Below, in pieces: positions 6,909 through 39,665 of a DNA stretch of 64,000 nucleotides. Within the stretch, counting starts at the first letter, position 1; the number at the start of each line of letters is the position of its first letter. Position numbers and translations under genes: made by a program. Under the pieces are notes generated by a model. That model did not search any database, had not been told where the DNA came from, and saw only the letters and a list, made by a program, of their open reading frames with translations. The stretch is from Ignavibacteria bacterium (GTDB lineage Bacteria > Bacteroidota > Ignavibacteria > Ignavibacteriales > Ignavibacteriaceae): NCBI GenBank assembly GCA_037447335.1, contig JBBIGV010000011.1, forward strand, positions 8,191 through 72,190. Reading direction: 5' to 3'.

Positions 6909-8384
6909 AATCATTCCGGATTCTTTCTGTTACAAGTTTTGAACTGATTATAACCATAGGCAGCCCAGTGCCCGGTGTTGTTGAGGCGCCAACGTAATAA
7001 AGATTGGGAAGCTTCTCATCTTTATTTTTTGGTCTGAATGCGCCTACCTGCATAATGTCATGCGCTAATCCTAGCCCGGAGCCTCTGTAAAGATTAAACT
7101 TCTTTTCCCAGTCCTCCGGTGTAAATACTTTTTTAACAAGAATATTTTCTTTTATGTTAAAGTTTGAACGTTTGCTTAAATCATCTATTATAATATCAGC
7201 GAGTTCTTGCCGTCGCTCCAGTCAGGGTTGTATCGTCTGTCCGGAACCGGGCAAAGAATAAAAATATTTTCACAGCCTTCAGGTTCACAATCAGATGCAG
7301 ACTTTGAAAGGACGTTCACATAGTAATAGGGTTTTTGCGGACTTACGGATGACGTAAAAATCTTATCTGCATAACCTCTGAAATTATTACCAAGAAAATA
7401 ATTGTGGTGCATCAGCGTATCAACCTTTCCTTTAACACCGAGGTAGATTGTAAATGGTGCGAGCGTCCAGTTCATTTTATCCAGCTTCTGTTGACTGAAG
7501 TTCTTTCTTCCAAGCATTTTGCCTCTGAAAGACGCAGCATCTGAATTCGAAACAAAAATATCCGCATTCCATTCTCTGCCGAGGTTATCCATTACCGAAT
7601 ATATTTTCCCGTTCGAATTAGAAATCATCACTACTTCGGTACTAAAAATAAAGTTAACTCCTTTTTCCCAGAGGATTTTCATCAATTCATTAACCAGCGT
7701 ATACATGCCGCCTTCAACCTTCCAGTAGCCATCATGCCTCATTTCGGTATAGTTAAGCAGAGAATAAATTGCCGGGGTCTGAAAAGGTGTTGAACCCAGA
7801 AAAAAAAGCAACCAGAGAAAAATGATCCTAACCTCGTTGGAATTAAAGTTCTTTTCAACTTCCGACCAAAGATTTCTGAAGAGATAGGGCAGGTGCTTCA
7901 TAGGAACTTTTGTAAGTGTATGCAGATACTTAATCAAACTATCAAAATTTGATTTTACAACTTTGTTCTCTGTTTCGTGAAAAAACTGTCCTGCTCTTTT
8001 AAGATACTGCTCAACTTTACCAGCAAGCCCGGGTTCAATATCCTTAAACTCCTCCTCTAATTTTTGAAGGTCTTTCCAAATTCTATAGGATTTTGGATTT
8101 CTTTCAAAGAATACCTGGTAAAGCGGGTCAAGCGGTGTAAGTTTAACAGGATTTTTTAGTCCGCAGCTATTAAACAGTTCGTCAAACTCATAACTCATGC
8201 TCATAAAGGAGGGACCAAAATCAAATGTAAATCCATCTGTTTTAAGCTGATTAAGCCTTCCGCCCGGTGTTGAATGTTTTTCAATTACAGTTACGTCATA
8301 TCCATCCGTGACGAGCCTGAGGGCTGTTGCCAATCCTCCTAAGCCGGAACCAATAATTATTGCTTTCTTATTCGTTTTTTGCAT
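6889..8384 (-). pseudogene. crtI: phytoene desaturase, frameshifted near the C-terminus
   Basis: N-terminal IIGSGLGGLATALRL..EKHSTPGGR. The C-terminal ADIIIDDLSKR...GSGLGLAHDIMQVGAFRPKNKD..LYYVGASTTPGTGLPMVIISSKL is in a different frame. The shift lies near 7201..7208. Confidence 0.8.
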
Positions 8385-28814: not shown

Positions 28815-28954
28815 GGGGCTCTGACCAAAATGCAGCACAGATTACTAATCTGTGCTGCAATGAATTTGAATTTAATCTGAAATCAGACATAAAAATTCAA
28901 AGTTGTTTGAAAATTTACTTTTCCCAAAGGGATGGATTCCCATTGGTCAGCCCC
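28815..28954 (+). repeat. palindromic intergenic repeat element, copy 1 (MITE/REP-like or structured RNA)
   Basis: Near-identical to 39548..39665. Termini are GGGGCT(CT)GACCAA / TTGGTCAGCCCC. Internal perfect hairpin GCAGCACAGATT-ACT-AATCTGTGCTGC. It carries an extra insert of about 22 nt relative to copy 2. Confidence 0.8.
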
Positions 28955-28966
28955 ACCTCAAAAAAA

Positions 28967-29419
28967 TTATTTTTTATATTCTTTCAGGAATCCCATAAAT
29001 TCAATGCGATGAGATTCTTCCATTCCGAGCAGTTGGATACAAAGATCCTGTGTTACATAATCCACACCATCACATAGTTTAATGAGCTTACCATATTGTT
29101 CGATAGCTCCGTTTTCAGCTTCGATAACACCTTCTATTACAGAAACAACATCTGTTGTGTCTTCTTTGGTCTGAAGGTATGTTTGTACTGCTTTAAAATT
29201 CATAGAGCCCGGCACTGTGCCGCCAAGTTCTTTGATTCTTTTTGCAAGGCGCTGTGCATGGGAAATTTCTTCAGTAACATCGGCAGCAAGAGATTTTTTG
29301 ATTTCTTCTGCTCTTACACCGTCAAGGTTGATTGAATTGGAAATGTAGTTCATTACTGTTTCGATTTCCATCCAATAGCTTTTAATTAAGTTTTCGATTA
29401 TTTCTTTTTTGTTTGACAT
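28967..29419 (-). CDS. ferritin-like / Dps-like four-helix-bundle protein
   Basis: 150 aa containing MEIETVMNY...EEISHAQRLAKRI...EESHRIEF di-iron type ligand spacing. Confidence 0.65.
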   Translation of the reverse strand: MSNKKEIIENLIKSYWMEIETVMNYISNSINLDGVRAEEIKKSLAADVTEEISHAQRLAKRIKELGGTVPGSMNFKAVQTYLQTKEDTTDVVSVIEGVIEAENGAIEQYGKLIKLCDGVDYVTQDLCIQLLGMEESHRIEFMGFLKEYKK

Positions 29420-29427
29420 AACTTCTC

Positions 29428-30732
29428 CTAATAGATTGTTTTTTTGATTAGTTTGATTTTGTTGCCTTTGACTTTTGAAAATTCCAATGAGTTATAAATT
29501 CTTTTTAATGAATTATCTATTTGATTTTTTTTGTCGGTTCTGATTTCGCCGATGATCATATCTTTTGTAAGATGATCACCTGTTTTAACATTAAGTATAA
29601 TTCCTGCTTTATGATCGATTACCTCATCTTTTGTAAGACGACCAGCGCCAAGCTCAAGTGCTGCCATTCCTATCATATATGTATCAATGCTTTTTACACA
29701 GCCGGAAGCAGGACTGTATAGCTTAATATTATATTTAGAACGGGGATACAAATCAGGATTACTAATTATTTTAATATCTCCGCCTTGCAGCCTGACTATC
29801 TCTAAAAATTTATCATAGGCTTTACCGCTCATTAAAATTTTTTTTGCCTTTTCAGTACCTTCCTTTATAGAGCCGGCTTTCCCGCCTAAAAAAATCATCG
29901 CTCCGGACAAAGTAACAGACAATTCGTATAAGTCTGAAGAATCATCTCCTCTAAGCACATTAAGCGATTCATACACTTCAAGCCAGTTGCCGATATAATT
30001 GCCGAGAGGTTGATTCATATCTGTTATAAAGGCGATTACCTTTTTCTTAAAAGATTTTGCCGTTGAGATCAAGGAATCAGCAAGCACCAACGCTTCCTTT
30101 TCACTCTTCATAAAAGCGCCGTTACCGGTTTTCACATCAAGCACAAGTCCGTCAATTCCTTCAGCAAGTTTTTTGCTCATTATGCTTGCTGTAATAAACG
30201 GAACGGATTCAATTGTTGCCGTTGCACTTCTGAGAGCGTAAATAAGTTTATCAGCAGGAGCAATTTCCTTCGTCTGCCCTATAAGCGCCGCCCCACATTT
30301 TTTCAGAACATATTTAAATCTGTTGAGATTCAAACTTGTATTAAAACCCGGTATTGATTCGAGTTTATCGAGAGTGCCGCCGGTATGTCCTAAACCTCTT
30401 CCCGAAATCATCGGAACATATATGCCTGCAGATGCTGCAACAGGTGCAATTATCAGTGAGGTTTTATCGCCAACACCTCCGGTAGAATGCTTGTCGATTT
30501 TATAGCCTTTTATACTGCTTAACTCAACTAACTTACCTGAGTGCAGCATAGATTTGGTCAGGGCAGATGTTTCTCTTTTATTCAAACCATTAAGAAAACC
30601 AGCCATTAAGAAGGCAGCAAATTGGTAATCAGGGATTTTCCCGGATGAATAGCTTTTGATCAGAAAATCTATTTCAATATCAGATAATGACTCACCGTCT
30701 CTTTTCTTTTGGATAATTTCCAACGAATTCAT
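29428..30732 (-). CDS. deoA: thymidine (pyrimidine-nucleoside) phosphorylase
   Basis: 434 aa with KHSTGGVGDKTSL and SGRGLGHTGGTLDKLESIPGF. Confidence 0.9.
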   Translation of the reverse strand: MNSLEIIQKKRDGESLSDIEIDFLIKSYSSGKIPDYQFAAFLMAGFLNGLNKRETSALTKSMLHSGKLVELSSIKGYKIDKHSTGGVGDKTSLIIAPVAASAGIYVPMISGRGLGHTGGTLDKLESIPGFNTSLNLNRFKYVLKKCGAALIGQTKEIAPADKLIYALRSATATIESVPFITASIMSKKLAEGIDGLVLDVKTGNGAFMKSEKEALVLADSLISTAKSFKKKVIAFITDMNQPLGNYIGNWLEVYESLNVLRGDDSSDLYELSVTLSGAMIFLGGKAGSIKEGTEKAKKILMSGKAYDKFLEIVRLQGGDIKIISNPDLYPRSKYNIKLYSPASGCVKSIDTYMIGMAALELGAGRLTKDEVIDHKAGIILNVKTGDHLTKDMIIGEIRTDKKNQIDNSLKRIYNSLEFSKVKGNKIKLIKKTIY

Positions 30733-30914
30733 AGTGCAAATTTAAGAATAAATGCTTTCTATTCCGATTAAACAGATCACTTGTGTTTGTGAAAGTCCAT
30801 TACTTAAAATGTTTAACTAACAGCATCTAAACTATTACAGATTATTTGGTTAGCCGCATTGAAATGTTTATTTTAAGCACTTCAAATTTCAAACAAAAGG
30901 AGTAAATCTGTTTA

Positions 30915-32693
30915 ATGTTGTTTCAGAAAAGAACACATACATGCGGTGAATTACGCGAAAAAAATATTGGTGAGAGAGTTATACTCAACGGCTGGGTTGA
31001 TACGCGGCGCGATCTGGGCGGTTTAATATTTATCGAATTGCGGGATCGTTACGGAATAACACAAGTGGTTTTTGAGCCAACTTACAATGAACCGGCACAT
31101 TATAAAGCAAAAAATCTACGCAGCGAGTTTGTAATTTCTGTTGAAGGTGTTGTGCGAAAAAGACCTGAAGGAACAGAGAACACAACTCTTGAAACAGGTT
31201 TGGTAGATGTAATGGTTGATAAGCTCGTTATCCTTAATGAAGCCAAAACACCGCCATTCCCGATAAAAGATGAAATAGATACACACGAAGACAGCAGATT
31301 GAAATACAGATACCTCGATCTAAGAAGACCTCTGGTTCAGAAAAATTTATTGCTGCGGCATCGGATGTATCAGCTTACAAGAAAATATTTTGATGAAAAT
31401 AATTTTGTTGAAATTGAAACCCCCGTCCTAATGAAAAGCACACCGGAAGGTGCGCGCGATTTTCTTGTGCCAAGCCGTTTGCACAAAGGTAAGTTTTATG
31501 CACTGCCGCAATCTCCGCAAACATATAAACAGCTTCTGATGGTGTCAGGGTTTGACCGCTACTTCCAGATAGTTAAGTGTTTCAGAGATGAAGACCTTCG
31601 CGCCGACCGCCAGCCGGAGTTTACACAAATTGACGTGGAAATGTCGTTCGTTGATCAGGAAGATATTTTTGAAATGGTTGAAGGTTTGATGAAGGTTCTT
31701 TTCAGAGAAATCCGGAACAGAGAACTTCATACACCTATTACCAGGTTATCATTTACCGAAGCGATGGAAAAATACGGGAGCGATAAACCTGATCTGCGTT
31801 TCGGACTTCAGATGGTTACCCTTAACTCTGTTTTTCAGAATACTACATTCAAAGTTTTTGAAGATCAGATTAAAAATGATGGAATCATAACCGGTCTTCT
31901 TGCACCCGGCTGCGGTGACTATACACGCAACCAACTGGATGTACTAACAGATTTCGTTAAAAAGCTCGGCGCCGGCGGTTTAATCTGGATGCGGGTAAAG
32001 GATAATGGTTCGGGGTCAGAGCTTGAAGCGCCTATTGCAAAATTTCTTTCACTGGAAGAAAAGAACGGAATCATAAACAGTCTTGATGCTAAAGCAGGTG
32101 ATTTAATTTTTATTTTATCCGGTCCGTGGTTAAAGGCTCTTTCAATTATGGGCGCACTCAGGCTTGAGATGGCTAAAAGACTTAACCTTATAAAAGAAGA
32201 TGCTGAACCCCACTTACTTTGGGTAACAGATTTCCCGCTTCTGGAATGGGATGAACACACAAAAAGATATTATGCAATGCATCATCCGTTCACATCTCCC
32301 CGGTGGGAAGATATTCCGTTGATGGATACAGACCCGGGAAAAGTAAAAGCCCGTGCATATGACCTCGTTCTTAACGGTAATGAAATTGCAGGCGGCAGCA
32401 TTCGTATTCACAATTCCGAACTGCAGGCAAAAATGTTTAAGCTGCTGGGCATTAGTGAAGAGGAAGCAGAGTACAAATTCGGATTTTTAATGAATGCATT
32501 TAAATACGGCGCACCGCCGCACGGCGGGATTGCTTTCGGTTTCGACAGAATGGCGATGATCTTTGCAGGCGAAAATTCTATTAGGGAAGTTATTGCGTTC
32601 CCCAAAACAGCAAGCGCCATATCACTTATGGATGAATCTCCCTCTACAGTTGCAGAAGAACAATTAACAGAGCTTCATATTAAAATCAGATAG
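30915..32693 (+). CDS. aspS: aspartate--tRNA ligase
   Basis: 592 aa with the class II motifs FRDEDLRADRQPEFTQID and GGIAFGFDR. It ends with TAG. Confidence 0.95.
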   Translation: MLFQKRTHTCGELREKNIGERVILNGWVDTRRDLGGLIFIELRDRYGITQVVFEPTYNEPAHYKAKNLRSEFVISVEGVVRKRPEGTENTTLETGLVDVMVDKLVILNEAKTPPFPIKDEIDTHEDSRLKYRYLDLRRPLVQKNLLLRHRMYQLTRKYFDENNFVEIETPVLMKSTPEGARDFLVPSRLHKGKFYALPQSPQTYKQLLMVSGFDRYFQIVKCFRDEDLRADRQPEFTQIDVEMSFVDQEDIFEMVEGLMKVLFREIRNRELHTPITRLSFTEAMEKYGSDKPDLRFGLQMVTLNSVFQNTTFKVFEDQIKNDGIITGLLAPGCGDYTRNQLDVLTDFVKKLGAGGLIWMRVKDNGSGSELEAPIAKFLSLEEKNGIINSLDAKAGDLIFILSGPWLKALSIMGALRLEMAKRLNLIKEDAEPHLLWVTDFPLLEWDEHTKRYYAMHHPFTSPRWEDIPLMDTDPGKVKARAYDLVLNGNEIAGGSIRIHNSELQAKMFKLLGISEEEAEYKFGFLMNAFKYGAPPHGGIAFGFDRMAMIFAGENSIREVIAFPKTASAISLMDESPSTVAEEQLTELHIKIR

Positions 32694-32746
32694 TCGCTGA
32701 AGCATATTCGGATAACGGGGAGGCAAAGAATTTTTTATATCGGCTG

Positions 32747-34366
32747 ATGAATAAAATTCCCAAACCATCACATATTCCTTTCCTGATTAACACGGCAATT
32801 TTTTTGCTGGCTGTTTATCTGTTACTTAACCAATCGCTGGCATCTAACGATGGAAAGCTGACTTACAACCTTGACGATGCTTACATCCATCTTGCAATCG
32901 CTAAGAATTCAGTTGAGCATTCGGTGTGGGGTGTAACCTCAGATGGATTTACATCTTCATCATCTTCTCTGTTGTGGACATCTGTGCTTATAGTTCTGTA
33001 CAAGGTTACCGGCGAACTGGAAAGCCTGCCGTTCATACTTAATGTTTTAATTTCTCTGCTGTTATTGTACGTTGTTTACAAAGAACTGCGCAAACATTTC
33101 AACAACGTCTTTTTATTAACGATTTTGCTGGCGGCGATACAAGCTGCGATACTTATTCCTTTTCATGTTTTCTCCGGGATGGAGCATATTCTTCACATGC
33201 TGCTGACACTTTTGTTTATAAGATTACTGCTCAATTTTATAAGCAATGAATCAACTAAATCAGAATTAGCTTATCTTCTTGTTATTACATTCTTACTCAC
33301 TTCTGTAAGATTTGAGTCTGTCTTTCTGATCTTTGCTTCAATTATTCCTCTGGCAAAGGAAAAAAGATATGCAGTATTATCTACTCTGATATTGTTCGCA
33401 TCGCTGCCTGTTATTATTTACGGATACTATTCACTTAATAACGGGTGGTATTTTCTGCCGAACTCCGTTTTGCTTAAGGGCAATCAACCTGAAGTATCAT
33501 TTTTATCTTTAATTGTTTTTGTACTTAAGCCGATCGGCGGATTGTTTAAGTACAGCATTCATTTACTGGCAATAATTGCATTACTGCTGTTGGTGTACCG
33601 GATGCAAAAATTATCAAAGGAACAAAAATATTTTTTATTTCTGTTCGGCGGTACACTTTTATTGCACCTGCTGTTTGCCAGAGTCTCGGGCACATTTAAT
33701 ATTGAGGGAGGAATAAGGTATGATTCATACCTGATTCTGACGGGGCTGTTGTTAGCAGTTATTCTTACATCAGGAAAGATAAAGGAGATATTTAGACTAA
33801 AAAATTTCCGCAGCAGCCCGGTAAGCCAAAACATTTTAAACATTGCACTCATATTCATCTTCGCTTTCCCGCTTCTTTACCGTGGAGTTGTAATAACCAA
33901 AAAAACTCCTGTTGCAACAACAAATATTTACCAGCAGCAGATACAAATGGGAAAATTTTTTTCAATATATTTCGACGGGCAAAATGTCGGTGTTAATGAT
34001 ATCGGGGCTGTATCATTAATAAAAGGAAGCAATGTGGTTGATCTATGGGGACTCTCCGATATAGAAGCAGCTATTGCAAGAGTTGAAAAAAGATATACAT
34101 CCGGATTTTTAGTTGATTTGATTCATAAAAAAGATGTTAAGGCGCTTGCAATTTATGACCTCTGGTTTGAAAAGTATCCCTTATTAAATAGTTCACTGGT
34201 TAAAGCAGGCGAATGGGAAATAAAGAACAACATAATCTGCGGCGACAGCATCGTGTCTTTTTATGCTCCTGATTCAATATCAGCATTAGAATTGTCCGAA
34301 AAACTAACTCAATATTCTGACCAGTTACCGGGATCAGTCATTGTCAGAAATTATTTTCAAAAATAA
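32747..34366 (+). CDS. large polytopic membrane protein, possibly a GT-C-fold glycosyltransferase
   Basis: 539 aa with about 12 TM helices, an acidic first-loop motif NLDDAYIH and a soluble C-terminal domain. The family assignment is tentative. Confidence 0.4.
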   Translation: MNKIPKPSHIPFLINTAIFLLAVYLLLNQSLASNDGKLTYNLDDAYIHLAIAKNSVEHSVWGVTSDGFTSSSSSLLWTSVLIVLYKVTGELESLPFILNVLISLLLLYVVYKELRKHFNNVFLLTILLAAIQAAILIPFHVFSGMEHILHMLLTLLFIRLLLNFISNESTKSELAYLLVITFLLTSVRFESVFLIFASIIPLAKEKRYAVLSTLILFASLPVIIYGYYSLNNGWYFLPNSVLLKGNQPEVSFLSLIVFVLKPIGGLFKYSIHLLAIIALLLLVYRMQKLSKEQKYFLFLFGGTLLLHLLFARVSGTFNIEGGIRYDSYLILTGLLLAVILTSGKIKEIFRLKNFRSSPVSQNILNIALIFIFAFPLLYRGVVITKKTPVATTNIYQQQIQMGKFFSIYFDGQNVGVNDIGAVSLIKGSNVVDLWGLSDIEAAIARVEKRYTSGFLVDLIHKKDVKALAIYDLWFEKYPLLNSSLVKAGEWEIKNNIICGDSIVSFYAPDSISALELSEKLTQYSDQLPGSVIVRNYFQK

Positions 34367-34398
34367 AAAAGGTGAGTTTTTAATACTCACCATATTTT
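34365..34398. terminator. bidirectional terminator between convergent genes
   Basis: GGTGAGT-TTTTAAT-ACTCACC hairpin (34371..34391), with an A-run before it and a T-rich tract after it. Confidence 0.6.
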
Positions 34399-34422
34399 AA
34401 TTAGTTAATGATTAAACAGTTA

Positions 34423-35577
34423 CTACTCGTAGTAAGAAATAATAACCGGTCTTTCCGAAGCTGGTCCAACACCCCCAACCTTCCAGAAAGGAGCAGTTAA
34501 AACTTCTGAAGCTGGTCTGTAATAAATCTCTGTTCTTCCTTTAAATTCAAATATGCCTTTTGCAGTCATACTTCCATAAAGTTTGGATTTGCTGCTAAAT
34601 GAAATTTTTCCATATGAAAAAAGCTGTGCTCTGATAGTAGTATTGTTTCCACATTCCACATTTCCTTTTGCATAAATACCAAGATTGCTGGAATTCGGGT
34701 CTTCTGAAAGAATTGAAATATTTGCCGTTACATTAACATTACCTTTAACAATGTAAACACCATAACCCATAAAAGTACCGCTTATATTAAGATTGCCGCA
34801 GACATAAATGATTTTTGGATTATCTTTTGTTCCAAGTAATGTTGTACCGCTTACATTGAGATTTCCTTTATGAACTTCTGCTGCAATATCAATGTAATCG
34901 TCCGGTTCAAATGCGGGGATTTCAATTTCGTCACTCTGATAATGATTCGGACTTCCATCCGGATTAACATTAGGCACTATTTGAGTATTTAATCTGTGCC
35001 CCGGATTAGAGCTTGCAACGCCCTTATATGTAAGAAATCCTCTTATAAGGTTATTGCCATTCATTGTAAAATTTTTATTGGTATGAACATTTGAATTCCA
35101 GTTTGAGTTGTTATCGTCCCTGATATTCACATTCTGAATTGATATGTTTTCATCGGAAGCCATTGCATACTTCATAAACGGCGGTAAATTCCCCTTGGAT
35201 GCATTTGGTGATGGCAGCTCAACTACTGTTCTTATAATGTGTTCCTGGCTGCCGGATTTACCAACGGCAGTTATCAAGCGTCCGTGCTTCAATCCTTCAT
35301 CAGGACCATTAAAGTATTTGCTGGTTGTTTTCTGAATGGTTATTTCAACATCACCTTGATGAAGCTGGACTGATTTTGTTCCGGTCCACGATGTATCCAT
35401 TGAAAGGTCTTTGATTGCAATCTCTATTCCTGCTGAGGCATTATTCTTTGCATGCACATTCTCATATTCTGAAACAGAATTAGAGAACATGGAAGTATTA
35501 CTCCTGTTCATATTCAAACTCATAACCGAGAATATTAAGCTTGCACCTAAAACAACTATCAGCAGCATTTTGCCCAT
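34423..35577 (-). CDS. pilin-like N-terminus + beta-helix-like repeat protein, paralogue A (PilX-like minor pilin or tip protein candidate)
   Basis: The start is taken at MGKMLLIVVLGASLIF. Repeated GN(V/L)N(V/I)xG units are present. The C-terminus is YYRPA..L..PFWK.GG...RPVI.SYYE. I judged it by eye to be a clear paralogue of 35813..36970. Confidence 0.6.
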   Translation of the reverse strand: MGKMLLIVVLGASLIFSVMSLNMNRSNTSMFSNSVSEYENVHAKNNASAGIEIAIKDLSMDTSWTGTKSVQLHQGDVEITIQKTTSKYFNGPDEGLKHGRLITAVGKSGSQEHIIRTVVELPSPNASKGNLPPFMKYAMASDENISIQNVNIRDDNNSNWNSNVHTNKNFTMNGNNLIRGFLTYKGVASSNPGHRLNTQIVPNVNPDGSPNHYQSDEIEIPAFEPDDYIDIAAEVHKGNLNVSGTTLLGTKDNPKIIYVCGNLNISGTFMGYGVYIVKGNVNVTANISILSEDPNSSNLGIYAKGNVECGNNTTIRAQLFSYGKISFSSKSKLYGSMTAKGIFEFKGRTEIYYRPASEVLTAPFWKVGGVGPASERPVIISYYE

Positions 35578-35617
35578 TTTACAAACCAATAATTAAGTTA
35601 AACATAACTCAATTATG

Positions 35618-35632
35618 CAACTACCGTGCAAA
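35618..35632 (-). promoter_or_regulatory. shared 15-nt promoter/operator motif TTTGCACGGTAGTTG upstream of paralogue A
   Basis: On the minus strand it lies 40 nt upstream of the ATG at 35577. It is 14/15 identical to 38111..38125. It resembles the sigma54 consensus TGGCACG-N4-TTGC except that -24 GG is TG. Confidence 0.4.
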
Positions 35633-35751
35633 AGAAAAAGGCTAAAAACGGAGCAAAATCAAGCCTTTTTGCCCCAATTGATGTATCGAAATGATAAGGA
35701 GGATAATAATGAATCAGGAGAATAATTTGATATTTTGAAGTGAATAATACA

Positions 35752-35788
35752 GCGTAAAAATAAAAAAGGTGAGCACCGGGCTCACCTT
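35752..35788 (-). terminator. rho-independent terminator of the upstream minor-pilin-like operon
   Basis: 9-bp stem AAGGTGAGC / GCTCACCTT (35766..35788) with a minus-strand T-run. Confidence 0.7.
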
Positions 35789-35812
35789 CGTTAAAAATAA
35801 TCGGGTTGAAAT

Positions 35813-36970
35813 TTATTCGTAGTATGAAAGTATAACCGGTCGTGTGGCAATTGTCCCGCCACCGCCGGTTTTCCAGAAAGGAGATGACAATTCATCTGCT
35901 GCCGGTCTGTAATAAACTCCAACATTGCCATTAAAGTTAACTTTACCCTGTGCTGCCATGCTTCCGTGGACGCTGACATTACCATTAAGATTAATATCCT
36001 CAGAAGACAACAATTGGGCTTTTACGGTTACATTACCATTCATATTTATATTACCCTTTGAGTAAAGCCCAAGGTTACTGGATGTAGGGTCAATACCCAG
36101 AATATTAACATTACCGTTAATTGTTGTTGTTCCCTTAACAATAAATACTCCATAACCTTTAACATTACCATTAAGCGTCAGATTTCCACCTACATAAATA
36201 ATGCTCGGGTTATCTTTGGTGCCGAGTGTAAGATTACCGCTTACACTGTAATTACCCATATGTTTATGAGTTGCCAAACCGATATAATCCTCGGGGTTGA
36301 AATCAGGTATTTCAATCTCAGGCGATTTAAAGTGAACGGGATCCCCGTTAAGGTTTACATTAGGTTTAATATTGGTGTTTAATCTGTGCCCCGGAGTTGA
36401 GCTTGCTGTTCCTGTATATGATAAAAATCCCTTAATTGTTGGATTACCCGTCATTCTGAAATTTTTATTTGTATGAACATTGGCATTCCATAACGGGTTA
36501 AAGTCGTCTCTTACCTGCACATTGCCTGTCAGAGCAAAATCTTCTCCCGAAGCAATTGCATAAGTTAAAAACGGCGGCACTTTCCCAGGCGGTCCGGAAG
36601 AAGTTGGAAGCTGTATAACGGCTCTTATTATATGAGTCTGATCTCCAACCAAGCCGGTTGAGGTAACAAGTCTTGCGCCTATCAATCCTTCATTCGGTCC
36701 GTTGAAATACCTGCTTTGAGTGTTCTGAACAGTGATGGAAACGTTACCCTGATAAAGAGTCCGTTTGTTCACACCAGCCCACGCAGTATCGACAGAAAGA
36801 TTCTTTATTGCCAGCTCAATGCCCGCTGCAGCATTGTTTTTTGCGTGAACGCTTTCGTATTCCTGTACCGAATTTGTGACCATTTCGGTATTGCTGGTGT
36901 TCATATTCAGGCTTATCAGCGAGAATATTACGCCTGCGCTCACAACCACAATTAATAACATTTTGCCCAT
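35813..36970 (-). CDS. pilin-like N-terminus + beta-helix-like repeat protein, paralogue B
   Basis: MGKMLLIVVVSAGVIFSLISL followed by NGNV-type repeats (NLNGNVSVHG, NFNGNVGVYY). It has the same conserved C-terminus as paralogue A. Confidence 0.6.
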   Translation of the reverse strand: MGKMLLIVVVSAGVIFSLISLNMNTSNTEMVTNSVQEYESVHAKNNAAAGIELAIKNLSVDTAWAGVNKRTLYQGNVSITVQNTQSRYFNGPNEGLIGARLVTSTGLVGDQTHIIRAVIQLPTSSGPPGKVPPFLTYAIASGEDFALTGNVQVRDDFNPLWNANVHTNKNFRMTGNPTIKGFLSYTGTASSTPGHRLNTNIKPNVNLNGDPVHFKSPEIEIPDFNPEDYIGLATHKHMGNYSVSGNLTLGTKDNPSIIYVGGNLTLNGNVKGYGVFIVKGTTTINGNVNILGIDPTSSNLGLYSKGNINMNGNVTVKAQLLSSEDINLNGNVSVHGSMAAQGKVNFNGNVGVYYRPAADELSSPFWKTGGGGTIATRPVILSYYE

Positions 36971-37042
36971 TTTATTTAACCTTTATGTTAGTTTTTATTA
37001 AATCCATTTCGTTTCTCATCTTAGACTGAATCAGGAAGCTAA

Positions 37043-37570
37043 TTATAAGTTCCTCGGGAAAAATCTTCTCTTCCATGAGCCGGATACTTCGCCCTTTGAA
37101 TCTTTGAAGGAATCTTCTTTAAAAATTAATTCAATAGATATACTTTTGACTTTACTTGCTGCCTGGGTAACAATGCCTTTATCATCGTAACCTTCAACAA
37201 TAAATTTCTGAACCGGTGTAGTCCATTCGGTGACCGGGCTGCTGGTTCTTCTTTTTAACTCTACGATGCCCTGCCCTTTTGCAACTGAATAATAAACTGT
37301 GTCAACAACACCGTTATTATCCAGGTCGGCGAGAAAGGTTATAGAGGTTCCGGAAATATTTAATATTTTATCGCTGGCAGAAACCCTGTAGCCAAGTTTC
37401 TGAAAATCATGTTCGATTATTGCTCCAATCTCAGTTGCTGATCTTTGGGCAATTTCACTAAGCTTGGTTTCCTGGGATTTGGCGGAGAAATGAAAGGTTA
37501 ACCCTATTAAGGATAATAGTACCATTCCGCCAATTATATAAGATCCGGCTATATCTAATATGTGATGCAT
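37043..37570 (-). CDS. minor pilin-like protein (N-terminal hydrophobic helix, no canonical leader)
   Basis: MHHILDIAGSYIIGGMVLLSLIGLTF followed by a soluble beta-rich domain, in operon context. Confidence 0.45.
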   Translation of the reverse strand: MHHILDIAGSYIIGGMVLLSLIGLTFHFSAKSQETKLSEIAQRSATEIGAIIEHDFQKLGYRVSASDKILNISGTSITFLADLDNNGVVDTVYYSVAKGQGIVELKRRTSSPVTEWTTPVQKFIVEGYDDKGIVTQAASKVKSISIELIFKEDSFKDSKGEVSGSWKRRFFPRNL

Positions 37571-37576
37571 AATTAT

Positions 37577-38062
37577 TTAATAACTTTTGTATGAATAAAT
37601 TCTTACTGTGTCTGTCATAAACGGATGTGTTACTGTAACCTGGATTCTTTTAAGTCTTGAACGAACCAATAATGTGTCTATTCCATTATGTTCATTCACG
37701 TAATGAACCCTTGCTAAAAGATCAAAATTCCCACCGCGTAAGGTAGAATCTATCCTTGGGTGGAAATTGTAATCGTCAACATCATTAAACGTTGCAAATG
37801 TTTCACCAGGTTCGGGGCCCATAAGGTTTGGTGGTGTCAGTATATTAATATCAGATAGGATCGGGTTGCCAACCACAAAATGATCAAAGGCTTTTTCGGT
37901 GATTTCATTGATCAGGTTCTGCCCGACCGATGTTGCCATAACAATATATTCGGCGGAGAGCTTCTGCTCTTCGGAGCTTATAATTGTGCGGTTGACGTTT
38001 AACGCCAGAAGGGAAAAGAGAAAGATGCCGCCTATTACTAAGTATGTTTGTACGTTACTCAT
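37577..38062 (-). CDS. minor pilin-like protein (N-terminal hydrophobic helix, no canonical leader)
   Basis: The start is taken at MSNVQTYLVIGGIFLFSLLALNV. The longer TTG-initiated ORF reaching 38113 overlaps the promoter motif. Confidence 0.45.
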   Translation of the reverse strand: MSNVQTYLVIGGIFLFSLLALNVNRTIISSEEQKLSAEYIVMATSVGQNLINEITEKAFDHFVVGNPILSDINILTPPNLMGPEPGETFATFNDVDDYNFHPRIDSTLRGGNFDLLARVHYVNEHNGIDTLLVRSRLKRIQVTVTHPFMTDTVRIYSYKSY

Positions 38063-38110
38063 CTGAGGGCTTAAGATTGAGTTTATGATTATTATTTGAT
38101 AATACAAACA

Positions 38111-38125
38111 CAACTATCGTGCAAA
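38111..38125 (-). promoter_or_regulatory. shared 15-nt promoter/operator motif TTTGCACGATAGTTG upstream of the minor-pilin-like operon
   Basis: On the minus strand it lies 48 nt upstream of the ATG at 38062. It is 14/15 identical to 35618..35632. Confidence 0.4.
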
Positions 38126-38235
38126 TCTTTTTTATGCTTTTTCGAATGATTTCAAGCAGTACCTGTATTTAATGTGTATCAGCATGAAAAAAAGTTGCAT
38201 CTCAATCTCAGATTTACTCATAAAAAATTCCATCT

Positions 38236-38247
38236 ATTACCGGTAAT
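38236..38247. promoter_or_regulatory. perfect 12-bp palindrome ATTACCGGTAAT in the divergent pilin control region
   Basis: It is self-complementary. Related sites are TAACCGGTAAT at 38301..38311 and AATTACCGGT at 39724..39733. Confidence 0.3.
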
Positions 38248-38567
38248 AAATTGACTTATTATTAATTCGATTTAAATCTATTAGGATATTATATAATTAT
38301 TAACCGGTAATATTTACATTTTTAGATCCTGTAAAATCCATTTTTCTTAGAATTTTAGCTTCATCACTTTTATAAATTGTGCATTCGATAATTAACAATG
38401 TGTCCACAGAAATTAATACTGGAATTTAATGAGTGAGTTGTTTGATTGCCTTCTTAAAAACGGGTAAAAATTTATATTATTAGTAATAATTACACGTAAT
38501 AACTTCCATAGTTACCGATGCAAGTCCAACCCATCAAATAACTTATTGTAAAGAAATAAGTTACAGA

Positions 38568-38584
38568 TTGGCACAGAATTTAAT
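38568..38584 (+). promoter_or_regulatory. weak sigma54-like promoter candidate upstream of the first pilin gene
   Basis: In TTGGCAC-AGAAT-TTAAT the -24 element is perfect and the -12 element lacks GC. It lies about 47 nt upstream of the TTG at 38631. Confidence 0.25.
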
Positions 38585-38630
38585 GAGTTATATGCGAGTT
38601 CGAGTAATTACAAAATGAAAGAAAAGGAAA

Positions 38631-39011
38631 TTGGGACAGCAACAGTTATTACTAATAGTCCTTGGAATAATAGTCGTAGGAGTAGCCGTTGCATTTGCAA
38701 TTGCAATGTTCCGGCAGGGAGCTATTGACTCCAAGAGAGACCTGGTAATGAATGAAAATGCTAACCTTGCAAACATGGCAATTCAATATTATAGAAAGCC
38801 TCAGATGCTTGGAGGAGGAGGAAATACTTTTTTGGGCTGGGCTATTCCCTCAGAACTTATAATAACAGCCAGCGGAAATTACTGGGCAGAAGTTTACCAG
38901 GATAGCGTCGTTATAATAGGTACAGGCAATGACGTTGTTAATGGCACAGATTCTGTAAGAGTAAGAACAACAGTTACAGCAAATACACATTTTTCTTTAA
39001 TAGTTCATTAA
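38631..39011 (+). CDS. major pilin candidate P1 (leaderless, non-canonical)
   Basis: TTG start preceded by AAGGAAA. N-terminus MGQQQLLLIVLGIIVVGVAVAFAIAMF followed by an amphipathic helix. It shares a YY(R/K)KP..GGGGNTF.GW.IP motif with P2. Confidence 0.6.
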   Translation: MGQQQLLLIVLGIIVVGVAVAFAIAMFRQGAIDSKRDLVMNENANLANMAIQYYRKPQMLGGGGNTFLGWAIPSELIITASGNYWAEVYQDSVVIIGTGNDVVNGTDSVRVRTTVTANTHFSLIVH

Positions 39012-39070
39012 ACGTTCTTTTAACTTATTAACCTAACTAACATTATCAACAATCGTAAGGAGATCTAATA

Positions 39071-39436
39071 ATGGGTCAACAACAACTTCTCTTAATCGTG
39101 CTTGGCGTTATCATAGTAGGTATCGCTGTTGTAGTCGGTATCAACCTGTTCAATGCGAGCGCGGAAGAATCAGCAAAAGATTCGATTGTATCTGAGGCAA
39201 CAAACCTTGGCGCAATGGCTCAGCAATATTACAAGAAGCCAACCTCCATGGGCGGCGGTGGAAATACTTTCACAGGATGGACAATCCCGACTAATCTTGA
39301 CTCCACTGCTAATGGACAATATGCACCAACTGTTGCTCCTCAAGAGGTTACTATAGTAGGTACACCACATAATTATACCTGGACAGTAACTACAACCGTT
39401 ACACCAAACACAATATCATCTCAGGGTAGCTGGTAA
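39071..39436 (+). CDS. major pilin candidate P2 (leaderless, non-canonical)
   Basis: ATG with an AAGGAG Shine-Dalgarno sequence. An in-frame TAA 15 nt upstream excludes a longer leader. N-terminus MGQQQLLLIVLGVIIVGIAVVVGINLF, with a Thr-rich C-terminus. Confidence 0.65.
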   Translation: MGQQQLLLIVLGVIIVGIAVVVGINLFNASAEESAKDSIVSEATNLGAMAQQYYKKPTSMGGGGNTFTGWTIPTNLDSTANGQYAPTVAPQEVTIVGTPHNYTWTVTTTVTPNTISSQGSW

Positions 39437-39466
39437 TAAAATATTATCACTTCTTATATGATTACT

Positions 39467-39498
39467 AAGGCTGCTAAAAAGGCAGCCTTTCTTTTTTT
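39467..39498 (+). terminator. strong rho-independent terminator after the pilin genes
   Basis: AAGGCTGC-TAAAAAG-GCAGCCTT followed by TCTTTTTTT. Confidence 0.8.
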
Positions 39499-39547
39499 AA
39501 ATCTGTACCGCGTTGATATGAGTTATTATAAATTTCAATCCCTTGTA

Positions 39548-39665
39548 GAGGCTGACCAAAATGCAGCACAGATTACTAATCTGTGCTACGATGACTTTGA
39601 ATTTAATCTGAAATCAGACATATAAATTCAGAGTTGTTTGCAAAATTTACTTTTTGGTCAGCCTC
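39548..39665 (+). repeat. palindromic intergenic repeat element, copy 2
   Basis: Same orientation and near-identical sequence to 28815..28954. Termini are GAGGCTGACCAAAA / TTTTGGTCAGCCTC. Confidence 0.8.

Follow-up and report, generated by a model that had tools for sequence, protein, structure and literature searches.

A family of palindromic intergenic repeats, probably of the REP/REPIN/BIME kind, with two copies in an Ignavibacteria contig

Two copies of a palindromic element occur in the window, by which we mean the whole 64,000-nt stretch of Ignavibacteria DNA analysed here, and we think it reasonably likely that they are members of a non-autonomous family of palindromic intergenic repeats of the REP/REPIN/BIME kind. 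The REP/BIME-like reading given in the original prediction is borne out, in that the repeat is palindromic, dispersed and of the REP/BIME/MITE kind, and the family shares with REPs and REPINs the properties of being extragenic, palindromic and present in many copies without target-site duplication. Arms of the form G-R-GGCTGACCAAAAAG and CTTTTTGGTCAGCC-Y-C are common to all elements; this 16-nt arm and its reverse complement define the family, enclosing a variable interior of lineage-specific hairpins. A keyword search of the literature, exclusive of the supplements of a large MITE survey, returned no description of such a family, and a search with the sequence of the arm brought up nothing but unrelated matches, COI primers among them. 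The family as such seems to be undescribed, although its kind is an ordinary one, REP/MITE-like.

Small palindromic repeats shape bacterial intergenic DNA: transcripts end at them, mRNAs are stabilised by them, assemblies break at them and rearrangements start from them. Beyond the Proteobacteria they are poorly catalogued. With its simple 16-nt signature, the present family allows such elements to be picked out in Bacteroidota, Ignavibacteria and other groups, and it connects CGTC-tagged hairpins with RAYT-like genes in Bacteroidota. If a single enzyme recognises the shared arm, it would offer a tractable system for the single-strand transposition of hairpins. The gain for annotation is modest: the elements are best treated as repeats and masked, so that no genes or small RNAs are called in them.

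Copy 1 (28815..28954, plus strand, 140 nt) lies between a ferritin-like gene and a Band 7 gene, and copy 2 (39548..39665, plus strand, 118 nt) between the terminator of a 121-aa ORF and a T2SSF gene. The two like copies in one orientation that had been predicted at these places are indeed there; the repeat extends over 96 nt without gaps at 93% identity, and a 23-mer common to both occurs exactly twice in the window, against an expectation of 0 from 100 shuffles. Two copies are thus documented in the source contig of 72 kb, the remaining 8.4 kb of which holds no third copy. The window has no solitary copies, and a likeness to DNA uptake sequences was set aside for this reason. The element contains only short ORFs in inconsistent frames, in agreement with its description as non-coding, and the two sequences are true copies of a non-coding and probably selfish DNA repeat. 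The stop codon of the ferritin-like gene (150 aa, 28967..29419, minus strand) is 12 nt away from copy 1, which in turn is situated approximately 100 nt upstream of the Band 7 gene. Upstream of copy 2, the 121-aa ORF (39071..39436, plus strand), called a pilin in the original prediction, had no match in a Pfam search; it has its own terminator (39467-39489, followed by a T-run), after which copy 2 comes, and the T2SSF (PilC-like) gene lies 130 nt downstream of the copy.

The arms of copy 2, GAGGCTGACCAAAA (39548..39561) and TTTTGGTCAGCCTC (39652..39665), are 14 nt long and 100% complementary. In copy 1 the left arm, GGGGCTCTGACCAAAA (28815..28830), differs from the family arm by an insertion of 2 nt, which limits its pairing with the right arm, CATTGGTCAGCCCC (28941..28954), to 8 + 5 nt; terminal inverted repeats of 12–14 nt, as first described, apply to copy 2 but not to copy 1. 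Hairpin 1 has 14 bp with 1 nt between its arms in copy 1 (28831..28859, minus strand) and 11–12 bp in copy 2 (39563..39589, minus strand), which corrects the perfect 12 bp first given for it. On the minus strand of copy 1, TTTTGG comes after this hairpin and makes an intrinsic-terminator-like site that faces the ferritin-like gene; in copy 2 the hairpin is likewise terminator-like on the minus strand. Hairpin 2 consists of TTTGAATTT...AAATTCAAA around CTGAAATCAG in copy 1 (28865..28901), and has 12-nt arms of 92% complementarity in copy 2 (39594..39634). The extra insert reported for copy 1 is present, at a size of about 20 nt and not 22 nt (28923..28942, CCCAAAGGGATGGATTCCCA); located just inside the right arm, it forms a small hairpin of its own. 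Small palindromic insertions of this sort are also carried by other family members. Both window copies fold well as RNA and as DNA on either strand (z-scores of -7.0 to -9.7, with 0/200 shuffles as good). The stem tag reads GTAG...CTAC in related Ignavibacteria copies, as against GCAG at the same position in the window copies.

Exact 36-mer and 20-mer queries of genome, metagenome and viral collections gave no useful match, and the family was found solely by a gapped search using both arms. This returned about 60 elements of 111–137 nt, carried by 30 or more genomes whose labels are Bacteroidota, Ignavibacteria, Fibrobacter, Treponema, Cetobacterium, Bacillus methanolicus and Brocadiaceae. Some of the odder phylum labels belong to MAGs and could be due to errors of binning; for Bacillus methanolicus the copies were found in isolates. 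Where the search pattern left an arm position free, conservation is still 65–96%. The interiors can be sorted into at least 24 unrelated classes, and are near-identical between multiple copies of one genome. One Chitinophagaceae MAG has the element at no fewer than 10 loci, and there are several copies per genome elsewhere. Every family copy is intergenic, in either orientation, with the upstream stop codon nearer than the downstream start codon, typically 5–50 nt past the stop. A recurrent neighbouring gene was sought around the family copies without success, the apparent clusters being T9SS cargo proteins and housekeeping genes. Viral contigs contained no copies, and plasmids none save a diverged one on pBM69.

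Both window copies are missing at the orthologous loci of Ignavibacteriaceae relatives whose AspRS is 92% and 82–83% identical, and they are a recent gain. In the closest relative (92%), the site of copy 1 is occupied by a hairpin of 37 nt, CGGAGGCTGAC-17 nt-GCAGCCTCCG, whose stem has the same base. In Cyclobacteriaceae, the site 3' of a kynurenine monooxygenase gene holds the full element in one genome and, in two others, a 33-nt hairpin, AGGCGTCAGACCGC..GCGGTCAGAAGCCT or a close variant; one family copy reads AGGCGT-GGGGCTGACC...GGTCAGCCCC-ACGCCT, and is thus nested in the outer stem of this 33-nt hairpin. These two natural ‘before and after’ sites suggest that the element inserts into existing hairpins. 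As a repeat of the REP kind, it would work at the DNA level, alike on both strands, and would enter, or take over the top of, resident hairpins just 3' of genes without target-site duplication. Its gain and loss would be quick on an evolutionary scale; decayed family copies are also present.

The likeliest mobiliser, to be named only tentatively, would be a RAYT/TIRYT-type Y1 (HUH) transposase, acting in trans on the folded single strand. The 33-nt hairpin, which is related to the family repeat yet distinct from it, flanks single-copy RAYT-like genes in Cyclobacteriaceae (Pfam Y1_Tnp; NCBIfam NF047646, 69.5 bits), one of which is 1.4 kb from a family copy, and the tagged hairpins inside the elements, GTAG..CTAC in Ignavibacteria copies and CGTC/TGTC-AT.. 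in others, match the kind described for REPs. The source contig of 72 kb contains no Y1 transposase. Each RAYT-like gene examined has its own lineage-specific flanking hairpin, different from the family arms, and this fits poorly with one arm sequence across phyla.

Published precedents are TIR families that flank RAYT-like ‘TIRYT’ genes, and long palindromes with REP dimers nested in them (Di Nocera et al. 2013, PMC3733652). As in the present family, these have outer palindromic arms around GTAG- or CGTC-tagged hairpins, and the Cyclobacteriaceae element, lying in the outer stem of a hairpin that flanks a RAYT-like gene, resembles the TIRYT pattern; the precedents differ in sequence and in the taxa concerned (Anabaena, Halothiobacillus, Stenotrophomonas and Acidobacteria). 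Some TIRYT TIRs share GGGGWSAS (PMC3733652), which is close to the family GGGGCTGA, although the match is inexact. The family arm GGGGCTGAC fits GGGGWSAS only with one extra base, and no flanked TIRYT gene was seen. REPINs, the REP doublets associated with RAYT (Y1 HUH), are like the family in being extragenic and about 100 nt long, with two conserved inverted ends and a less conserved middle; both form a long hairpin on either strand, lack target-site duplication, often lie behind genes and number in the tens per genome. They differ in that REP units are small palindromes with an unpaired GTAG tag, whereas the 16-nt arms of the family are not self-palindromic as classical REP units are, and pair only with each other; in that REP sequences are species-specific, whereas the family arms recur over the labelled phyla; and in that REPINs are mobilised by RAYTs, whereas no RAYT-like gene bounded by the family arms was found among the six clusters of RAYT-like proteins looked up.

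ERIC/IRU and Correia (CREE) elements are imperfect palindromes of 100–155 nt in transcribed intergenic regions, with variants that carry internal insertions, and they affect termination or mRNA processing; no dedicated transposase is known for either. They resemble the family in size, in being intergenic palindromes and in their internal insertion variants, without sequence similarity to it; Correia elements differ in having 26-bp TIRs and a TA duplication, and ERIC in being conserved over the whole length and occurring in Enterobacteria and Vibrio. Integron attC sites, which come directly behind an ORF, are folded single strands of 57–141 nt whose ends are conserved and whose middle varies, and the family is like them in each of these respects. 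The attC core (R'' RYYYAAC / R' GTTRRRY) is missing from the family, whose arms read GGCTGACC / GGTCAGCC, and attC sites form cassette arrays, whereas the family elements are dispersed among housekeeping genes with no integrase; attC was rejected for want of the core sites.

It is unlikely, if conceivable, that the arms mark a cross-phylum superfamily of mobile palindromes with an undescribed mode of propagation, in which a REP or terminator hairpin already at the site has its top replaced by the element and the target is not duplicated. A horizontally spreading single-strand enzyme, Y1/HUH-type or other, would then recognise the folded arm. Such a mode would account for the identical arms across phyla, the lineage-specific interiors, and the orthologous sites with either a short hairpin or the full element.

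We regard as improbable a classical MITE, in which a DDE-type insertion sequence, reduced by internal deletion, would be moved by cut-and-paste via its 16-nt terminal inverted repeats. MITEs are small elements without coding capacity, present in many copies in either orientation and bounded by terminal inverted repeats, here a perfect 14 nt in copy 2 and 16 nt in the family consensus against the usual minimum of 10–15 bp. MITE superfamilies such as Tourist and Stowaway have the same ends and unrelated interiors, a pattern that the family resembles. Against this, target-site duplications, a check named in the original prediction, were not found: direct repeats of 2–9 bp at seven offsets (0–6) were no more numerous around 60 copies than in the shuffled control, even though near-identical, presumably recent copies from the same genome were included. 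No longer element or insertion sequence bounded by the same ends was present in about 450 kb of family loci, transposase genes do not recur near family copies, and the plasmid and viral collections yielded only the diverged pBM69 copy. The suggestion of a MITE, in the strict sense, is thus not upheld. A likeness to the ends of Tn3, ISL3 and mariner elements was dropped, since these require target duplications, which are absent here.

Improbable to a similar degree is a functional RNA, either a small RNA gene or a 3'-UTR terminator or stabiliser, maintained by selection on RNA structure and repeated only secondarily. In keeping with this, the folds are very stable, the usual position is 5–50 nt 3' of stop codons, hairpin 1 with TTTTGG resembles a terminator, the left arm and hairpin 1 are invariant across six Ignavibacteria copies, and compensatory changes occur in two subfamilies (2/40 and 7/42 predicted pairs); stem conservation, however, is mostly plain sequence identity. 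Rfam matched the element neither in 18 family loci nor in the window, where the best scores on it were 24–26 bits against thresholds of 80–82 and the sole match was a tRNA elsewhere. The strand co-transcribed with the upstream gene gives no signal of selection on RNA structure, with 16 copies folding more stably on the sense strand and 15 on the antisense strand (Wilcoxon p = 0.85), and orientation relative to neighbouring genes is random. The gene ahead of copy 2 is already provided with a terminator, and the terminator-like hairpin of copy 2 is in the wrong orientation. Taken with the decayed copies and the absence of the element from orthologous sites of close relatives, these results do not favour the strand-specific structured small RNA that had been proposed. 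Likenesses to the Ro-binding helix of Y RNA and to the acceptor stem of tmRNA/tRNA were dropped, as they amount to only 5–8 nt, with no Rfam match.

A role in termination may still be a side effect, in that the element would bring a hairpin and a T-run with it. Both copies have the sequence form of an intrinsic (Rho-independent) terminator on the minus strand, a G+C-containing hairpin followed by a T-run; in a scan for this sequence pattern, hairpin 1 with TTTTGG behind it matched in both copies, its stem having 13 pairs in copy 1 and 12 in copy 2. The same scan gave no other terminator-like site between the stop codon of the ferritin-like gene and copy 1. Judged from sequence, copy 1 probably ends the ferritin-like transcript or makes it more stable on that strand.

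An invertible DNA switch, common in Bacteroidota, in which a site-specific recombinase would flip a segment of about 90 nt at its inverted repeats, is very improbable: the short segment between inverted repeats of 14–20 nt is suggestive, but interiors are multi-copy and near-identical within a genome, orientation is constant across independent samples of a locus (L058/L103/L104/L106; L084/L102; window vs L002), and recombinase genes do not recur nearby. The GGCTG...CAGCC hairpin was also considered as a general motif of these genomes and rejected: it is slightly commoner than expected by chance, but most cases are a single conserved terminator 3' of the 121-aa ORF.

The repeat element put forward in the original prediction is real, and both copies lie where it had placed them, their alignment spanning the whole of the shorter one. 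Copy 2 (window 39548-39665, 118 nt) is bounded by perfect terminal inverted repeats of 14 nt; copy 1 (28815-28954, 140 nt) ends in the same way, with its left arm interrupted by a 2-nt insertion and an additional small hairpin of ~20 nt (28923-28942) immediately inside its right arm. The copies share one orientation and an ungapped core of 96 nt with 93% identity, and a 23-mer common to both is found exactly two times in the 64-kb window and never in 100 shuffles. Each contains a strong hairpin 1, of 14 bp in copy 1 and 11-12 bp in copy 2, and an A+T-rich hairpin 2; on both strands, as RNA or as DNA, its fold stability exceeds that of shuffled sequences by 7 to 10 standard deviations. The element is non-coding, as had been proposed: ORFs crossing it are short and their frames differ between the copies. 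An independent Logan assembly of run SRR11582151 holds the same sequence as the window; its 10.7-kb contig (L002) starts and ends inside the two copies, and the repeat thus breaks de Bruijn assemblies. The window belongs to the 72-kb contig CAYSPC010000011.1 of MAG GCA_964432855.1, and its aspartyl-tRNA synthetase comes nearest to proteins named Ignavibacteriaceae or Ignavibacterium. The remaining 8.4 kb of this source contig contains no further copies.

The stop codon of a ferritin-like gene (150 aa, minus strand) lies 12 nt before copy 1, and ~100 nt past the copy comes a Band 7 gene, also on the minus strand. Copy 2 is found behind a 121-aa ORF (plus strand), which had been labelled a pilin and had no match in a Pfam search, and 130 nt upstream of the T2SSF gene. 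In both copies a terminator scan found hairpin 1 followed by TTTTGG on the minus strand, the pattern of an intrinsic terminator. The site in copy 1 faces the ferritin-like gene, for which no other terminator-like site was found, and the sequence suggests that this copy probably also acts as the terminator of that gene. The site in copy 2 points away from both neighbouring genes, and that copy has no obvious use; the 121-aa ORF has a clear terminator of its own. The GGCTG...CAGCC stem of the latter is kept, with differing loops, in four related genomes (window 39467-39489; L094:18559-18579; L098:17866-17882; L100:16765-16794), and in L098 it reads ATGAGGCTGA-TTTAC-TCAGCCTCAT, the 10 outermost nt of the family arm.

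Exact long-word searches of genome, metagenome and viral collections gave no match. Relatives were recovered from contigs representing one genome per species with a gapped pattern consisting only of the 10 + 10 bases that the two copies share at their ends, and all counts from this search are lower bounds among the matches listed. About one third of the matches were chance occurrences inside G+C-rich genes, near the estimated number, and the rest were real, giving a family of at least about 60 elements of 111-137 nt, and one of 56 nt, in at least 30 assemblies. Carriers are labelled Chitinophagaceae, Terrimonas, Cyclobacteriaceae, Cytophagales and Bacteroidales on the Bacteroidota side, and otherwise Ignavibacteriaceae, Melioribacter, Fibrobacter, Treponema, Cetobacterium, Bacillus methanolicus PB1 and Brocadiaceae. 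Their arms have the consensus G-R-GGCTGACCAAAAAG, and arm positions not forced by the pattern are also conserved (85%, 65%, 96% and 93% outside the core; 87% and 87% inside). The interiors sort into 24 or more classes that show no detectable similarity to each other, the largest being those of Chitinophagaceae (19 copies), Cyclobacteriaceae (10) and Treponema (5), and they seem to grow by the addition of hairpins, as judged from their sequences. The class of the window recurs in four Ignavibacteria-type copies and seven metagenome contigs; its left arm and hairpin 1 do not vary and the remainder has diverged, some copies having decayed ends or being truncated. Viral contigs yielded no copies and plasmids only one, diverged and unannotated, on pBM69 of B. 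methanolicus MGA3 (L109:4001-4086, NZ_CP007740.1 51239-51324), where it adjoins radC and both arms are decayed. The family as such appears to be undescribed, since Rfam has no model of it and no paper with its sequence was found in the literature searched.

In kind the element is familiar, and its best placement is among the REP/REPIN-like palindromic repeats. Three identities had been proposed for it (MITE, REP/BIME-like insulator, small RNA), among which the REP-like one fits best as regards the kind of repeat. All copies are intergenic. Where the flanking genes run in tandem, the element sits nearer the stop codon upstream, at a median of ~26-50 nt, than the start codon downstream, at ~100-120 nt. 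The proportions of tandem, convergent and divergent contexts are about those expected from random intergenic placement, and orientation relative to neighbours is random, as in the Chitinophagaceae class, where our own tally gave four copies sense and four antisense to the upstream gene. No recurrent protein family was found beside the elements, the few neighbours in common being T9SS cargo proteins and housekeeping enzymes. The consensus folds of the two largest classes are stable, yet they consist mostly of unchanged bases, and of the pairs predicted just 2 of 40 and 7 of 42 have a double change. In a comparison of 32 copies whose upstream gene is clear, the fold was more stable on the strand co-transcribed with that gene in 16 cases and on the other strand in 15 (Wilcoxon p = 0.85), and a search of the window and 18 family loci against Rfam gave no family at threshold, the best sub-threshold element matches being far under their cut-offs. 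A strand-specific RNA gene or riboswitch-like element is hence disfavoured by the lack of strand bias, the few double changes, the random orientation and the decayed copies; the evidence speaks for a palindrome whose importance lies in the DNA, or in both strands alike. A MITE in the strict sense is judged unlikely from the absence of target-site duplications, which were sought at 7 offsets and 6 lengths and gave the same counts as a control pairing left and right flanks across copies; nor did any family locus hold a longer element between the same arms. An invertible switch is rejected, as orientation was identical in independent samples of three loci.

At the orthologous loci of relatives with 92% and 82-83% identity in aspartyl-tRNA synthetase, gene order is kept and both window copies are absent. 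The copy 1 site in the 92% relative holds a 37-nt hairpin, CGGAGGCTGAC-17 nt-GCAGCCTCCG, whose stem base matches the element arms and whose outer flanks are alignable. A cleaner case lies downstream of the kynurenine 3-monooxygenase gene in Cyclobacteriaceae, where two genomes carry the hairpin AGGCGTCAGACCGC-TCCAG-GCGGTCAGAAGCCT, or a close variant of it, 33 nt in length, and a third has, at exactly the same place, a full element ending ...GGTCAGCCCC-ACGCCT. Another family copy reads AGGCGT-GGGGCTGACC...GGTCAGCCCC-ACGCCT and so sits within the outer stem of a hairpin of the 33-nt type; flanks immediately outside the arms are complementary somewhat above controls. The element may thus enter hairpins already present behind genes, or replace their top.

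In Cyclobacteriaceae the 33-nt hairpin recurs as a dispersed repeat and flanks a gene whose 194-aa product has both the HUH and the tyrosine motif of IS200-like Y1 transposases. This protein matches Pfam Y1_Tnp weakly; in NCBIfam it scores best against the model for REP-associated tyrosine transposases (69.5 bits, cut-off 80). In L003 the gene (7045-7629, minus strand) lies between hairpins at 7008-7041 and 7644-7677, and likewise in L114, L115 and L118; one such RAYT-like gene has a family copy 1.4 kb away. Many homologues exist in Bacteroidota; they are single-copy and syntenic, some sources name them RayT, and their flanking hairpin differs lineage by lineage. Y1 transposases use folded single strands as substrate and leave no target duplication. 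A mobiliser of this type fits the placement, fold and target data, and we infer that a RAYT-like Y1 transposase may move the family. No RAYT-like gene bounded by family arms was found among those inspected. RAYT/REP pairs co-evolve fast, which does not predict one arm sequence across phyla. The Cyclobacteriaceae hairpin and the family arms have a common core, CTGACC / GGTCAG, with 8 of 10 bases identical in an end-to-end alignment. Many interiors contain CGTC- or TGTC-tagged hairpins with stems beginning AT, and the Ignavibacteria class carries GTAG...CTAC; by such tags Di Nocera et al. defined REP superfamilies (PMC3733652). The same 2013 survey records REP dimers nested in long palindromes and 'TIRtrons', RAYT-like genes between TIRs, some of these TIRs having a common motif GGGGWSAS, and states that no dedicated transposase belongs to CGTC REPs (PMC3733652).

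Several minor observations were made. The Cyclobacteriaceae RAYT-like genes lie between the kynureninase and kynurenine 3-monooxygenase genes, and their flanking hairpins are CGTC-tagged (AGG-CGTC-AGACCGC...). In the window, tandem paralogues of ~385 aa (34423-35589 and 35813-36970, both minus strand; ~70% DNA identity), one with a weak DUF7305 match, belong to a type IV pilus-like cluster that also includes minor-pilin-sized ORFs (37043-38113), the ORFs of 126 and 121 aa, T2SSF and T2SSE. Contigs of the 92% relative that reach the 121-aa ORF (L094:18512-18697, end of L097) stop ~185 nt past it, which suggests a different repeat or branch point there. The start of the source contig, outside the window (L131:19600-19841), carries tandem copies of a ~47-nt unit (GTTAGAGCGGGAGTAGCCTAAGCGGCTGCCCATCTCTTCCAACTGAGT); three or more identical units are visible and no spacers separate them. 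Small palindromic insertions of 12-22 nt recur in loops inside family members (window 28923-28942; L058, L084, L102 and L105, in the hairpin 1 loop; L044, L077, L052 and L089), and one is polymorphic between samples of a single locus (L058 versus L103, L104 and L106).
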